The notes below the pieces were generated by a model, which did not search any database, was not told where the DNA came from, and saw only the letters and a program-made list of their open reading frames with translations. Positions 27,199 through 36,183 of a DNA stretch of 36,183 bases are shown in pieces. Each line of letters starts with the position of its first letter. The first letter of the stretch is position 1. Origin of the DNA: Hadesarchaea archaeon DG-33 (lineage in GTDB: Archaea > Hadarchaeota > Hadarchaeia > Hadarchaeales > Hadarchaeaceae); contig LQHI01000062.1 in assembly GCA_001515185.1 (NCBI GenBank), forward strand, positions 1-36,183. Direction: 5' to 3'. The position numbers and the translations under genes are program-made.

Positions 27199-27663
27199 GT
27201 GACCTTGAAGGTGGATAACATGGTCGGATTTGAACCAAAAATCATCGTTTTTCTTTGCAATTTCTGCTCCTACGCTGCAGCTGACCTCGCTGGAACGAGT
27301 CGCATGCGTTATCCGCCTAGCGTCTACATCATCAGGCTGATGTGCACTGGGCGGCTAGATCCCGTTCACATTCTAGAAACTTTTAAACGAGGTGCGGATG
27401 GGGTGTTGGTCGCTGGATGCCACTTCGGAGACTGTCATTTCATCTCTGGAAACTACAAGGCTCAGCGGAGAGTTGCCCTGCTCAAGCGAATACTAGAGCA
27501 GTTAGGGGTAGAACCGGGGAGGCTCAAGTTCGAAACAATGTCAGCTGGAGAGGCTGAACGGTTCGTTAAAACTGTTACGGGATTTGTTGATGAGATTACA
27601 AAGTTGGGGCCTTGTAAAGTATCGACCCAAGTTTCTGAAAAAGTTTCATCACCAAGCCACTGA
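27199..27663 (+). CDS. mvhD: MvhD/FlpD-type hydrogenase iron-sulfur (delta) subunit
   Basis: EPKIIVFLCNFCSYAAADLAG...RLMCTGRLDP...GADGVLVAGCHFGDCHF is the MvhD signature. The likely start is ATG 27220, preceded by GGTGGA. Confidence 0.85.
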   Translation: MTLKVDNMVGFEPKIIVFLCNFCSYAAADLAGTSRMRYPPSVYIIRLMCTGRLDPVHILETFKRGADGVLVAGCHFGDCHFISGNYKAQRRVALLKRILEQLGVEPGRLKFETMSAGEAERFVKTVTGFVDEITKLGPCKVSTQVSEKVSSPSH

Positions 27664-27717
27664 TATTGAGTTATGAAAAAGCAATTCGAAGTTCAAAAGT
27701 ACGATGCATTATTTCTT

Positions 27718-28215
27718 TTAGGGGAGAACTCTCGACAAAAAACTTGATAAGCGCTCAACGGTTCCTTCCAATTCTTTTGTAAAACCTTCTCCAAAACTAG
27801 TGTCCTTTGGTTGCACGGCGAGCAAAGCGACCTTAGCACCAGTTGCCTCCGTTAGGAATTCTCGAAATATCTGATGAGTTAGAGCGTGAGTCAATACCGC
27901 TGGCCACGAGATCCGATTTAGTTCAATCAACCTTGAAGAACCAGGTTCTAGGCCTAGTTGAGCCGCGTTGACAAGTAGTATGTGGGTTGGCTTGAAGTGA
28001 ATAATCGGTTCTAAAAAATTCTCAGGGGACATTTCACACTCTATTAAATGAACCGATCGCGAAACTTTCCCTCGTAGTTTTTTCACGATTCCAACCCCTA
28101 TGAAATCATCTTTTCGAATCGAGCTTCCAATACCTGCGATGACAACCCTTCGGGCATCTAGAAGCCACTTCCTGAGTTTCTCGTTGAAATCATTTTGGAT
28201 CGCATATTTTTCCAT
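27718..28215 (-). CDS. [NiFe]-hydrogenase maturation endopeptidase (HycI/HybD/FrhD family)
   Basis: VVIAGIGSSIRKDDFIGVGIV aligns with GxGNxxxxD(D/E)GxG. PTHILLVNAAQLGLEPGS aligns with HycI PTRLLIVDATDMGLNPGE. LTHQ supplies the His ligand. Lies directly downstream of mvhA. Confidence 0.8.
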   Translation of the reverse strand: MEKYAIQNDFNEKLRKWLLDARRVVIAGIGSSIRKDDFIGVGIVKKLRGKVSRSVHLIECEMSPENFLEPIIHFKPTHILLVNAAQLGLEPGSSRLIELNRISWPAVLTHALTHQIFREFLTEATGAKVALLAVQPKDTSFGEGFTKELEGTVERLSSFLSRVLP

Positions 28216-35800: not shown

Positions 35801-36146
35801 GCCCAAGGACATCCCCGACACGGTAGCACAAGCATCAGCGAGCGCAGCTGAGGTTTGCTCTTTGTTAACAAAAGGCACGGTGGTGGCCGAAGGAATTGTA
35901 GCCTCGGTCGATGAGAATTTGTGCGCTGGTTGCGGTTTCTGTGCCGAGGTTTGTCCCATAGATGCAATAGAACTCGAGACGGTAGAGAGGAAAGGGTCAA
36001 TATCAAAAATAGCCAAGGTAAATGAAGCGCTATGTAAAGGTTGTGGCATATGCTCCGCAGCCTGTCTTTCGGGAGCCATCCAACAGCGCCACTTTGAAGA
36101 CAAACAAGTATTGCCCTTGATCGATGCGTTGGGTGAGCAAAGTTGA
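32799..36146 (+). CDS. hdrA: HdrA paralog (1115 aa) with a nested GltD/NfnB-like NAD(P)H-dependent FAD oxidoreductase module in its inserted-ferredoxin domain
   Basis: Residues 1-287 and 753-1115 are collinear with and highly similar to the upstream HdrA. Residues about 288-752 carry GltD/NfnB signatures: PCRDACPAG...[91 protein letters not shown] and [27 protein letters not shown]. ATGA overlap with hdrA1. Confidence 0.88.
   Translation: [1115 protein letters not shown]
33294..33400 (+). repeat. Partner copy of 31354-31460
   Basis: Same alignment as above. Flanking paralogous sequence is clearly more diverged. Confidence 0.8.
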
Positions 36147-36183
36147 GCTGGGAACCTCGTATAGTGGGCTTCTTATGCAATTG
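36143..36183 (+). CDS. mvhD: Second MvhD-like hydrogenase iron-sulfur subunit, first 13 codons only (runs off the window)
   Basis: A TTG overlapping the hdrA2 stop (TTGA) opens M-SWEPRIVGFLCN(W), which parallels FEPKIIVFLCNFC of the MvhD at 27199. Very short, so tentative. Confidence 0.45.
   Translation, partial: MSWEPRIVGFLCN

Follow-up and report, generated by a model that had tools for sequence, protein, structure and literature searches.

Several enzymes are known in which an HdrA flavoprotein is combined with an MvhD-type adaptor. One of these is the MvhAGD-HdrABC complex, the H2:heterodisulfide/ferredoxin oxidoreductase of methanogens (5ODC). The Hadarchaeota locus described here shares with it the Mvh-type hydrogenase subunits, MvhD, and HdrA with FAD and six [4Fe-4S] motifs, but has no local HdrB or HdrC. 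It also has a second HdrA and a second MvhD, one HdrA bearing an NADP(H) module, and it adds an FdhB-like subunit and subunits resembling sulfhydrogenase beta and gamma. The window, meaning the whole stretch of 36,183 nucleotides that was analysed, ends inside this gene cluster.

A second example is FlxABCD-HdrABC, the NADH dehydrogenase/heterodisulfide reductase of Desulfovibrio, in which an NAD(P)H flavoprotein delivers electrons through an MvhD-like adaptor to HdrA. Going by the description of Flx, the two systems share a sulfhydrogenase gamma-related NAD(P)H flavoprotein, beta-related iron-sulfur subunits, and the MvhD-like adaptor. The locus lacks HdrBC, and in addition to the Flx set it has an FdhB-like subunit, an NADP(H) module fused to HdrA, and a hydrogenase. 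The MetFV-HdrABC-MvhD methylene-THF reductase of Moorella likewise has an HdrA-MvhD core, and its acceptor is not a disulfide (PMC5736913). It differs from the locus, where neither metF nor metV was found in the window or its extensions.

HdrA can also carry a GltD/Nfn-like insert of about 460-500 amino acids in its ferredoxin domain, with mvhD as the next gene. The HdrA-NfnB fusion of the earlier note on this DNA is of this kind and is not new, having already been described as HdrL (PMC2702500, 2009), as HdrA9-11 (PMC9012536), and as type III HdrA (PMC12054007), a type named in 2022 and 2025. Fusions of this kind are found in many bacterial and archaeal lineages; HdrL is that of D. autotrophicum and S. 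fumaroxidans (PMC2702500, PMC5947623), and HdrA9-11 that of ANME-1 (PMC9012536). As at the present locus, an FdhB-like iron-sulfur protein accompanies HdrL in S. fumaroxidans, and in Bathyarchaeota mvhADG lies within the cluster, beside type III HdrA, where NADH-linked bifurcation has been proposed (PMC12054007, 2025). The published HdrL cases differ in that most occur with hdrBC, and their acceptor has been read as heterodisulfide or DsrC. No HdrL family member is known to have been characterised biochemically or structurally, and a PDB search returned no fused HdrL homologue. We know of no earlier description of a form like that in Hadarchaeota, which combines a partner HdrA, Mvh, and ShyBC-like subunits and lacks hdrBC.

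The reaction that the earlier note proposed, between H2, ferredoxin, and NAD(P)H, has a precedent on a different core. The electron-bifurcating [NiFe] hydrogenase NiFe-HydABCSL of Acetomicrobium mobile, which has a group 3 [NiFe] module, interconverts H2 with NADH and reduced ferredoxin (PMC9304861). Its HydBC core (NuoF/NuoE-like, FMN) is absent here, and an HdrA-type FAD would serve instead.

The hydrogenase genes

The genes previously listed for the locus, from mvhD1 to the start of mvhD2, are all present, in place and in orientation. The first, mvhD1 (27199..27663, plus strand), encodes an MvhD/FlpD [2Fe-2S] adaptor (Pfam FlpD, 8.7e-53) in which five conserved Cys can be read directly. Its open reading frame has 154 amino acids and the gene caller's version, from ATG 27220, has 147; start codons at the locus are uncertain by a few codons, and the gene caller differs for mvhD1, hdrA1, and mvhD2. 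Upstream of mvhD1 lie sufCB and an A/T-rich, TATA-like box (about 27165-27177).

Three genes follow on the minus strand. A HycI-type [NiFe]-hydrogenase maturation endopeptidase is encoded at 27718..28215 (TIGR00142 hycI, 1.6e-24; TIGR00072, 3.7e-18; Pfam HycI, 3.1e-6). Next to it, mvhA (28269..29756) encodes a group 3c-type [NiFe] hydrogenase large subunit of 495 amino acids, with the N- and C-terminal CxxC nickel-binding motifs (RICGVCPVAHH and DPCIACASH) and a C-terminal extension of 33 amino acids suited to protease processing. Its best NCBIfam match is VhuA (439 bits, 1.8e-131), compared with 203 bits (6e-60) for ShyA. In the PDB it matches the MvhA chain 5odc_F best (5e-118), followed by 7t2r_D (8e-118) and 9nez_D (3e-29). 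Entry 7T2R is presumably NiFe-HydABCSL, whose large subunit is thus as close to this MvhA as is that of 5ODC. The small subunit gene, mvhG (29753..30745; VhuG, 4.1e-66; Oxidored_q6, 8.3e-27), overlaps mvhA by 4 nucleotides and encodes 330 amino acids with no Tat signal.

Between mvhG and the divergent hdrA1 lies an A/T-rich intergenic region of 98 bp (30746..30843). Its sequence, which includes TTTTAAA and AAAAGATTAAAT, makes it a candidate for a shared promoter region. Elsewhere in the window is hypF (8164..10497, minus strand; Pfam HypF_C_2, 3.3e-70, and zf-HYPF), whose product, a [NiFe]-hydrogenase maturation carbamoyltransferase, may well serve the mvh hydrogenase. A POR operon is found on the same contig.

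Two HdrA paralogues

The first paralogue, hdrA1 (30844..32802, plus strand), encodes a complete HdrA flavoprotein of 652 amino acids (647 from the gene caller's start at GTG 30859; NF040770, 2.2e-261). The protein aligns to HdrA of 5ODC (5odc_A) end to end, over residues 5-649 (E 9.5e-236), and retains every cluster motif as well as the equivalents of Cys197 and Lys409. Its inserted ferredoxin domain has an atypical second Cys motif, C-x7-C-x5-C-x3-C, and this form is conserved in the partner HdrAs of three other loci (L003, L083, and L088; loci and contigs from other assemblies are given L numbers).

The second, hdrA2 (32799..36146, plus strand), encodes an HdrL or type III HdrA of 1115 amino acids. 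Two HdrA halves, amino acids 1-286 and about 749-1115, flank a Fer4_20 and Pyr_redox_2 module (NF009410, 5.8e-162, amino acids 285-789). In an alignment of twelve sequences the predicted cluster Cys, K358, R427, and K872 are all invariant. Both paralogues have the DCSAC, CVGSR...YCSRVCCMY, and CCMYxxK motifs, and in both the flavin-N5 Lys and the full set of six cluster motifs usual in a bifurcating HdrA are preserved. The 4-nucleotide overlaps reported earlier, ATGA at 32799-32802 and TTGA at 36143-36146, can both be read directly. Translational coupling links the plus-strand genes, hdrA2 being coupled to hdrA1 through the former overlap.

The NADP(H) insert of HdrA2

The insert in HdrA2 comprises about 460 amino acids (about 287-748; 33657..35042, plus strand). 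It lies between Cys motif I (C242-C252) and motif II (C759-C769) of the inserted ferredoxin domain. For FAD it has the Rossmann motif GGGPAG and for NADP(H) the Rossmann motif GGGNAA...YRRS..EMPA, and it also carries two [4Fe-4S] motifs. C292 and C296, from one end of the insert, and C753 and C756, from the other, are predicted to form one cluster.

The earlier note had described an NAD(P)-binding module of the GltD/NfnB type. Nicotinamide binding is borne out, in NADP(H) form: the GxGxxA Rossmann motif and YRRS..EMPA are common to all NADPH-dependent structural homologues. The 2025 paper on type III HdrA inferred NAD+ specificity, whereas HdrA2 has this NADP-type combination of GxGxxA and YRRS. 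The relationship to Nfn and GltD also stands. The NfnB type does not, since the insert is colinear with the NADP(H)-FAD-2[4Fe-4S] domain of Bfu-type NfnABC/StnABC (9N5U, 8OH5) and has its Lys ligand (KRF) rather than Glu, so it is closer to this non-bifurcating NADP(H) module of NfnA/StnA. A Lys as cluster ligand is characteristic of that module in NfnABC (PMC12018979). The PDB matches are 9bov_A (4e-132), 9n5u_A (5e-129), 8oh5_C (1e-113), 4ylf_B (4e-106), and 5jca_L (1e-95).

Relative to NfnB the insert is permuted, because the N-terminal segment of NfnB aligns to its end, and KRF replaces the ERF of NfnB/NfnL. This permutation, with Lys instead of Glu at the proximal cluster, speaks against an identity with classical NfnAB (4YLF, 5JCA). 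An identity with Bfu-type NfnABC/Stn was also rejected: their NuoF/NuoE-like BfuBC core is absent, with no Complex1_51K or NuoE-like gene in the window, in the extending contig L001, or in the Hadarchaeota MAG locus L003.

The insert had further been proposed to supply the high-potential branch in place of HdrBC. By homology to 5ODC, it would instead be located in the ferredoxin (low-potential) arm of HdrA rather than at the HdrBC site, and it is therefore not a simple replacement of HdrBC.

Genes beyond the window

The window cuts mvhD2 near its 5' end (36143..36183, plus strand; TTGA overlap with hdrA2). The frame after 36143 begins MSWEPRIVGFLCN, the gene caller starts at GTG 36164, and extending contigs complete an FlpD protein of 140 amino acids (E 1.3e-56). 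These contigs match the window over 13,385 nucleotides, one (L002) identically and the other (L001) with 9 mismatches. MvhD2 shares 64% identity with the MvhD encoded ahead of the FdhB-like gene in L083 and L085. For MvhD1 the identity is 59-61%, to the MvhD that follows HdrL in L083 and to the one that follows NuoFG-like genes in L085. MvhD1 and MvhD2 themselves are just 48% identical, so that, as first suggested, the locus has two distinct MvhD subtypes.

After mvhD2 the contigs continue on the plus strand with genes for an FdhB-like iron-sulfur protein (about 36559-37530 in window-equivalent positions), a ShyB-like sulfhydrogenase beta homologue (about 37527-38534; ShyB, 2.8e-70), and a ShyC-like gamma homologue (about 38468-39346; ShyC, 5e-64). 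Then comes moaE, on the opposite strand. An acceptor module had been suspected just beyond the window; hdrBC is not there, but these genes would encode a second NAD(P)H module. In the solved structures of Fdh-Hdr complexes FdhB docks via MvhD, and the FdhB-like protein is similar to that subunit (3e-26 to 1e-20). The ShyC-like (PyrK-like) protein matches the gamma subunit of P. furiosus SH1 at 3.5e-65 and NfnA (4ylf_A) at just 1.3e-12. AsrABC was considered and rejected, as AsrA/AsrB models score below ShyB/ShyC and the locus has no gene like that of the siroheme subunit AsrC.

Homology of the ShyB- and ShyC-like proteins to SH1 beta and gamma is clear (1e-53 and 3.5e-65). This agrees with a non-bifurcating NADP-reducing hydrogenase like group 3b, in which MvhAG would reduce NADP+ through the ShyBC-like subunits and the HdrAs would be only iron-sulfur/flavin wires or thiol/disulfide-type reductases. 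The large subunit, however, is Mvh-like and not 3b-like (5e-118 for MvhA versus 3e-29 for SH1 alpha), which excludes a group 3b sulfhydrogenase as such. Two full HdrAs with the flavin-N5 Lys and six bifurcating-type cluster motifs also oppose this reading, and some 1,770 residues of HdrA are implausible as a mere wire. It is very improbable.

A proposed bifurcating hub

We tentatively favour, with somewhat less than even confidence, a flavin-based bifurcating hub that is built on the HdrA1/HdrA2 (HdrL) pair, does without HdrBC, and serves H2, NADP(H), NAD(P)H, and ferredoxin. The subunits would form a soluble, multi-flavin assembly wired by iron-sulfur clusters, working by bifurcation or confurcation with no heterodisulfide-reducing HdrBC module. 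The insert of HdrA2 would be the NADP(H) port, in series with the iron-sulfur clusters of the canonical ferredoxin arm, and the free inserted ferredoxin domain of HdrA1 would be the ferredoxin site. A second, Flx-like nicotinamide port would run from the ShyC-like protein (FAD, [2Fe-2S], presumably NAD(P)H) through the ShyB-like and FdhB-like proteins to MvhD2, which may dock on the other HdrA.

Alone, the six-gene plus-strand operon would act as an Nfn/Stn-like transhydrogenase on NADPH, NAD+, and ferredoxin. Its predicted substrates equal those of Nfn/Stn (two nicotinamide sites and ferredoxin), but its core would be the HdrA FAD, not the FAD of NfnB/NfnL or the FMN-FeS core of Bfu. With Mvh attached, the net reaction would be 2 H2 + Fd(ox) + NAD(P)+ <-> Fd(red) + NAD(P)H. 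Electron flow in a fermentative Hadarchaeon would probably be towards H2 evolution, from NAD(P)H and from ferredoxin reduced by the neighbouring 2-oxoacid:ferredoxin oxidoreductase. The hub is in line with the description of most Hadarchaeota as heterotrophs (PMC10811742).

Against the hub, mvhD1 lies outside the mvhGA transcription unit, and both HdrAs retain the CVGSR...YCSRVCCMY [4Fe-4S] site, which in canonical enzymes is the donor to HdrC and therefore suggests some docking partner there.

Local absence of HdrBC

As the earlier note had it, no hdrBC is in view: the 36-kb window contains no open reading frame with a CCG motif and no Pfam CCG match. The region directly downstream, which the note had singled out for checking, is also free of both, for 5.5 kb beyond the window (L001) and for 10 kb in L003. 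Nor does the contig carry mcr/acr, CoM/CoB biosynthesis, or methanogenesis genes. Methanogen genomes can carry hdrA apart from hdrBC, and local absence is therefore not absence from the genome. It is weakened further as evidence by the closest archaeal relatives of the module, L083 and L085, where hdrB/hdrC are adjacent.

The locus may belong to a conventional Hdr system whose acceptor (HdrBC, an HdrD-like CCG protein, or similar) is encoded elsewhere and docks on the thioredoxin-reductase-domain cluster of HdrA1/HdrA2. H2 (through Mvh) and NAD(P)H (through ShyBC/FdhB-like and the insert) would be alternative donors, as in FlxABCD-HdrABC and PMC12054007. This fits the intact HdrC-facing cluster motif, and in S. 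fumaroxidans HdrABC and HdrL proteins were detected together in the proteome (PMC5947623). Of the 39 genome loci with adequate flanks, on which all locus counts here are based, 22 have a CCG protein no more than 10 kb from HdrL; such proteins adjoin the module in L083, L085, L087, and Bathyarchaeia L004/L006, and in Syntrophales hdrCB is inserted inside it. Against it, no CCG gene lies in the 36 kb upstream, or within 5.5-10 kb downstream in two related Hadarchaeota genomes, and at least seven unrelated lineages have the module without HdrBC. As indirect evidence, an HdrABC/Acr set has been reported within one family of Hadarchaeota and not outside it (PMC10811742). We consider an acceptor encoded elsewhere rather unlikely, though it is the likeliest of the alternatives.

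Recurrence in other genomes

The arrangement of the window is found again in L003, where HdrA2 is 91% identical and the 98-bp spacer between divergent mvhG and hdrA1 is kept. The operon hdrA-hdrL-mvhD-fdhB-like-shyB-shyC is more widespread, either by itself or together with Mvh, HdrBC, or MetVF. Locus L010, from a Dehalococcoidia MAG, has the identical six genes on their own, with regulators on the flanks. The FdhB-like, ShyB, and ShyC genes adjoin HdrL in 12 of the 39 well-flanked loci, 7 of these 12 having no CCG protein within 10 kb. An MvhD-like open reading frame is present in 30 of the 39, in most gene maps directly after HdrL.

The earlier note had asked about synteny, and Mvh does stand beside the module in other lineages. 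The mvhGA genes run in the same direction as mvhD-fdhB-like-shyB-shyC-(hdrA)-hdrL in L083 and in Promethearchaeota (L085), and in Thermotogae (L082) they are near the module. L010, L019, L084, L086, and many bacteria have the six-gene operon with no hydrogenase beside it; Mvh may therefore be optional or loosely coupled.

These occurrences would also suit genes that are neighbours by chance. The plus-strand operon would then work by itself, as an Hdr-based transhydrogenase of the Nfn/Stn kind or as an NAD(P)H:ferredoxin oxidoreductase, with MvhAG and MvhD1 independent or delivering electrons loosely, and the divergent mvhGA and the position of mvhD1 on the opposite strand, after sufCB, are in keeping with this. 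MvhAG, however, has no known acceptor besides MvhD-HdrA, and the two MvhD subtypes match the two HdrAs. The conserved divergent spacer and the co-oriented mvhGA of L083 and L085 point the same way, and chance proximity appears improbable. Related to the favoured hub is the possible, though doubtful, generalisation that the HdrA/HdrL-MvhD-FdhB-like-ShyBC operon is an unrecognised HdrA-based Nfn-like transhydrogenase for NADPH, a second nicotinamide, and ferredoxin, to which Mvh is attached on a second MvhD port in Hadarchaeota, some Asgard archaea, and Thermotogae. Mvh would then make it the first Hdr-type [NiFe] hydrogenase that bifurcates electrons free of HdrBC, and two special flavins may lie head to head, connected via iron-sulfur clusters, in one polypeptide.

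Other partners are seen among the relatives. Clusters of HdrA-HdrL-MvhD-MetV-MetF occur in L088, L054, L061, L062, and L069, and Complex1_51K/NuoE-like genes adjoin the module in L084, L085, and L086.

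Gene content of the cluster

All of the genes proposed earlier were recovered at their positions from the open reading frame list and family scans. The first MvhD gene, mvhD1 (27199-27663, plus strand), matches FlpD at 8.7e-53. It is followed on the minus strand by a HycI-type maturation protease (27718-28215), mvhA (28269-29756) and mvhG (29753-30745). On the plus strand come hdrA1 (30844-32802), which aligns end to end with 5odc_A of the MvhAGD-HdrABC structure (9.5e-236), and hdrA2 (32799-36146), in which HdrA halves surround a Fer4_20 and Pyr_redox_2 module. The two 4-nt overlaps described earlier, ATGA at 32799-32802 and TTGA at 36143-36146, were seen on direct reading of the sequence. 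The reading frame cut at the end of the window is a 140-aa MvhD (MvhD2) on contigs that extend it.

Assignment of MvhAG to the group 3b hydrogenases was rejected. MvhA scores 439 bits against VhuA and 203 bits against ShyA, and matches 5odc_F at 5e-118.

The FeS assembly genes sufC-sufB (25234-27155, plus strand) lie directly upstream of mvhD1, and hypF (8164-10497, minus strand) is on the same contig as the hydrogenase. These are maturation functions near an FeS-rich hydrogenase cluster. The remaining genes of the window are ordinary archaeal housekeeping genes (PcrB, SRP54, DUF655, lysine biosynthesis) and a 2-oxoacid:ferredoxin oxidoreductase operon. The beta (TPP-binding) subunit of this oxidoreductase (10522-12489, minus strand) is split by an intein, with Intein_splicing at aa 138-495 and a LAGLIDADG_3 homing-endonuclease domain at aa 358-419. 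Scans of the window found no Rfam or tRNA features.

Genes beyond the window

Two public contigs that run past mvhD2 encode a protein identical to HdrA2. One (L002) is identical to the window across 13,385 nt, and the other (L001) has 9 differing positions. After mvhD2 come three more co-oriented genes, fdhB-like, shyB-like and shyC-like, and then moaE on the opposite strand. The earlier note saw no hdrBC and allowed that it might lie just outside; on the extending contigs no hdrB, hdrC, glcD or CCG-domain gene follows mvhD2. A search for the gene order, also proposed there, found the identical arrangement in a Candidatus Hadarchaeota MAG (L003, a 1.03-Mb contig), with 91% identity in HdrA2 and 94% in HdrA1. 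A further 10 kb downstream in this MAG encode MoaE, two unknown proteins, Thi4, a PP-loop ATPase and a metallo-beta-lactamase-fold protein.

The FdhB-like FeS protein (323 aa) is similar to FdhB from solved Fdh-MvhD-Hdr complexes (9t1s_M 3e-26, 7bkb_E 2e-23, 8rvu_E 1e-20). It may be an F420 port: it matches FrhB_FdhB_C only in part (E 1e-9), has about 55 middle residues fewer than FdhB, and gave no FrhB_FdhB_N match in the domain scan. Its C-terminal 2x[4Fe-4S] half was considered as a substitute for HdrC and rejected, with no significant likeness to HdrC chains in the PDB.

The ShyB-like protein (335 aa) is a homologue of the sulfhydrogenase beta subunit (ShyB 2.8e-70; 9nez_B 1e-53). The ShyC-like protein (292 aa), a homologue of the gamma subunit, carries FAD_binding_6, NAD_binding_1 and [2Fe-2S] domains (9nez_C 3.5e-65). 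Anaerobic sulfite reductase AsrAB was rejected for this pair: its scores are below those of ShyB and ShyC, and AsrC is lacking. The shyB-like (L001 14729-15736) and shyC-like (15670-16548) frames share about 55-67 nt, the figure varying with the shyC-like start that is taken, which the gene caller puts at 15682.

The insert of HdrA2

HdrA2 is 70-72% identical to HdrA1 in both halves. Its insert, at about aa 287-748, consists of Fer4_20 and Pyr_redox_2 and sits between motif I (C242-x2-C-x2-C-x3-C252) and motif II (C759-x2-C-x2-C-x3-C769) of the inserted ferredoxin domain. In the Mvh-Hdr structure, this arm takes low-potential electrons to ferredoxin (summarized in PMC9012536). By homology, the insert would therefore be placed in the ferredoxin (low-potential) arm. 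The earlier note suggested that the module could supply the high-potential branch, a placement that was imprecise in an interpretation that was partly right.

Bfu-type (NfnABC/Stn) enzymes supply the best structural relatives of the insert, namely their NADP(H)-FAD domains: 9bov_A (4e-132), Thermococcus sibiricus NfnA (9n5u_A, 5e-129) and 8oh5_C (1e-113), presumably a subunit of Sporomusa ovata Stn. Classical NfnB/NfnL gives weaker matches (4ylf_B 4e-106, 5jca_L 1e-95). Colinear with the Bfu-type domains, the insert is circularly permuted relative to NfnB: NfnB residues 2-42 (ending RCLQC) align to its end, and residue 45 onwards to its start. Because of this permutation, C292/C296 and C753/C756, which lie at its opposite ends, are predicted to come together in a single [4Fe-4S] cluster at the base of the insert.

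Where NfnB/NfnL has a Glu ligand (ERF), HdrA2 has Lys (K358, KRF), as do 11 of 11 aligned homologues. Bfu-type NfnA likewise has Lys here. In that protein the Lys ligates the cluster beside the NADP(H)-binding FAD, which its authors term non-bifurcating.

The nicotinamide Rossmann motif GGGNAA is followed by YRRS..EMPA, as in all NADPH-dependent homologues aligned. The insert is thus predicted to be specific for NADP(H), in contrast to the NAD+ inferred for other type III HdrAs (PMC12054007).

The HdrA pair and the two MvhD proteins

The alignment of HdrA1 with 5odc_A takes in the equivalents of Cys197 (TLDCSAC) and of the flavin-N5 Lys409 (CCMYTVK). An obligate heterodimer by complementary Cys loss, as proposed for ANME HdrA3/4, was considered and not seen. 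Both paralogues are complete and keep every cluster motif, so no such loss compels them to pair. A heteromeric HdrA1-HdrA2 core is suggested by three features: hdrA1 and hdrA2 are coupled translationally, the hdrA-hdrL tandem recurs (in Hadarchaeota and in the relatives' loci L010, L083 and L088), and the partner HdrAs share a private Cys motif. This motif, C-x7-C-x5-C-x3-C (RCLYLTRGVCGKKPACKAAC), is the second one of the inserted ferredoxin domain of HdrA1 (aa 296-314, window 31729-31785). Structurally characterised HdrA has CxxCxxCxxxC instead. The atypical form is private to short partner HdrAs beside HdrL in three archaeal lineages (L003, L083, L088).

Along most of the alignment of hdrA1 and hdrA2, third-position identity is 0.3-0.45, near saturation. 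Around the FAD core two patches reach 0.75-0.89 (about 31340-31460 against 33280-33400, and about 31885-32180 against 35205-35500), with 84% DNA identity over 300 nt. The saturation and the common private motif argue that the pair is old, and the patches suggest gene conversion around the FAD-binding core. Descent of HdrA1 from a recent duplication of HdrA2 was rejected because synonymous sites are saturated outside the two conversion-like patches and the Cys motif is found across lineages.

It had been proposed that two MvhD adaptors fit two docking interfaces. Sequence identities establish two subtypes and are consistent with the docking idea. The MvhD located between mvhA and fdhB-like in L083 and L085 shares 64% identity with MvhD2; this subtype always precedes the FdhB-like gene and ends in ...W. 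MvhD1 is 59-61% identical to the subtype located after HdrL or after NuoFG-like genes in the same two loci.

Distribution and synteny

The fusion of HdrA2 belongs to a known, widespread and biochemically uncharacterised family, and the novelty claimed earlier was overstated. A protein search returned at least 8000 homologues. The best 120 of these are all about 900-1700 aa long with both HdrA-type and GltD-type Pfam domains, and their named sources are Thermoplasmatota, Theionarchaea, Methanofastidiosia, Promethearchaeota and bacteria. A scan restricted to a single genome for each species gave at least 80 loci, nearly all spanning HdrA2 residues 1-1111, from Dehalococcoidia, Syntrophales, Desulfobacteraceae, Acidobacteriota, Clostridia, Spirochaetes, Thermotogae, Bathyarchaeia and others. 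A structure-database search of the PDB found no HdrA-GltD fused homologue.

In D. autotrophicum, HdrL is described as a "heterodisulfide reductase/glutamate synthase fusion" with mvhD always coming after it (PMC2702500). The S. fumaroxidans proteome includes HdrABC/HdrL with MvhD and an FdhB-like FeS protein (PMC5947623). As "Type III HdrA", the family has mvhADG within a Bathyarchaeota cluster, and NADH-linked bifurcation was proposed (PMC12054007).

The window proteins and a CCG-motif regular expression were mapped to the 80 loci, and for six archaeal relatives the contigs were read with Pfam annotation. Counts refer to 39 well-flanked HdrL loci, with CCG and Mvh scored within 10 kb. An MvhD-like frame is present in 30 of the 39, directly after HdrL in most gene maps. 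FdhB-like, ShyB and ShyC accompany HdrL in 12. Five Syntrophales loci have hdrC-hdrB between fdhB-like and shyB; no CCG protein was found within 10 kb in the other seven (Hadarchaeota, the Dehalococcoidia locus L010, L019 and four of Bacillota/Spirochaete type). L010 is the exact plus-strand operon (hdrA656-hdrL1113-mvhD-fdhB-like-shyB-shyC), alone between regulatory genes. MetV-MetF is added in the four Bacillota/Spirochaete-type loci and L088, and NuoE/F/G-like (Bfu-like) genes with a further MvhD in Theionarchaea and Methanofastidiosia (L084, L086).

Mvh lies within 10 kb of HdrL in eight of the 39 loci. L083, from the 1212-aa HdrL group (HdrL cores about 70% identical), has in one orientation mvhG-mvhA-hycI-mvhD-fdhB-like-shyB-shyC-hdrA-hdrL-mvhD. 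The Promethearchaeota locus L085 matches this order except that it lacks the partner hdrA and has its hycI gene upstream of mvhG. In both, hdrB/hdrC adjoin the module.

From these maps of observed gene content, motifs and synteny, the conserved core is HdrL with MvhD and, in many lineages, a partner HdrA, commonly with the FdhB-like/ShyBC nicotinamide module. Mvh, HdrBC, MetFV and Bfu-like units are its exchangeable partners.

Proposed mechanism

We infer the subunit contacts, the electron path and the direction of flow as follows. In the best-supported reading, the plus-strand operon would have three substrate sites. NADP(H) would bind at the HdrL insert. NAD(P)H would react at the ShyC-like protein, which the ShyB-like and FdhB-like proteins and MvhD2 would connect to the C-terminal ferredoxin domain of an HdrA, on the model of FdhB-MvhD-HdrA and of Flx. 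For ferredoxin, the site would be the inserted ferredoxin domain of HdrA1, which is free. The Nfn/Stn transhydrogenases have this substrate set, and no other chemistry is evident for the operon of L010, which stands alone. That the hadarchaeal operon also encodes an autonomous transhydrogenase-like enzyme, its neighbouring hydrogenase being unrelated, is unlikely.

In the best-supported reading, MvhAG of the hadarchaeon would take the remaining MvhD port, and H2 would become a further donor or product:

2 H2 + Fd(ox) + NAD(P)+ <-> Fd(red) + NAD(P)H + 3 H+

A linear NADP-reducing hydrogenase, with H2 and NADP(H) as its substrates, is a very improbable account of the same genes. Most Hadarchaeota are described as heterotrophs (PMC10811742), and the contig encodes POR and HypF, which makes confurcation with evolution of H2 physiologically plausible.

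Both HdrAs keep the cluster that faces HdrC in canonical enzymes, and the locus has no obvious docking partner for it. This, together with the hdrBC genes adjoining in the closest archaeal relatives, is the main weakness of the best-supported reading. Both points favour a high-potential acceptor module encoded elsewhere, which is a less likely but serious alternative.

Comparison with known systems

Mvh and HdrL-family proteins are clearly present in the locus. It differs from Mvh-Hdr and Flx-Hdr in lacking HdrBC locally, from NfnABC/Stn in lacking BfuBC, and from group 3b hydrogenases in its catalytic subunit. The insert departs from classical NfnB in topology and in ligand.

The large subunit 7t2r_D, which we take to be that of NiFe-HydABCSL, is as close to the MvhA of the window as methanogen MvhA is. 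The proposed reaction matches the function of FeFe-HydABC and of NiFe-HydABCSL from A. mobile (PMC9304861). Since the latter is already described, a bifurcating [NiFe] hydrogenase is not new in itself. The new part, if the proposal is true, would be an HdrA-FAD core that bifurcates without HdrBC.

Flavin-based electron bifurcation has only four known cores, one of which is HdrA. To our knowledge, the acceptor in all HdrA enzymes characterised so far is a high-potential disulfide or methylene-THF, and no HdrL-type fusion has an assigned reaction. Such fusions are found in dozens of species-level genomes at the least, from many bacterial and archaeal lineages. A natural HdrBC-free form with a hydrogenase is a compact test case for whether the HdrA flavin can bifurcate among H2, nicotinamides and ferredoxin alone, and the locus is a good experimental target for this very widespread subfamily. 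If true, the proposal would give subsurface fermenters a new way to evolve or take up H2 and to balance NADPH with ferredoxin. The modularity seen here, in which a single core takes Mvh, HdrBC, MetVF or Bfu-like additions, also offers an annotation framework for such clusters in MAGs, where the usual label is now "heterodisulfide reductase".

Further partners of HdrL

MetV (DUF5981) and MetF (MTHFR) cluster with HdrA/HdrL-MvhD at L054 8001-9646, among the Bacillota-type loci, and at L088 13040-14610. This clustering suggests an HdrL-dependent variant of methylene-THF reductase. Pairs of frames of about 222 and 310 aa, sized like MetV and MetF, follow HdrL-MvhD in several loci of Deltaproteobacteria type (L048, L050, L057, L064 and L078).

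NuoF-like and NuoG/HydA-like genes and another MvhD follow HdrL at L084 9001-17707, L086 4819-13546 and L085 13690-17736 (Promethearchaeota). This run of genes opens, in L084 and L086, with one for a protein that bears a NuoE-type 2Fe-2S domain. Hdr-Bfu hybrid complexes with two kinds of bifurcating core are possible in those lineages.

The L083 cluster continues (13123-18120) with a GlcD-like FAD oxidase, an HdrD-like Fer4_8+CCG protein, the lipoate-protein ligase LplA, hdrC, hdrB and a second HdrL-type gene (1581 aa). These genes hint that the acceptor in this lineage may be a disulfide, either lipoyl or 2-hydroxyacid-linked.
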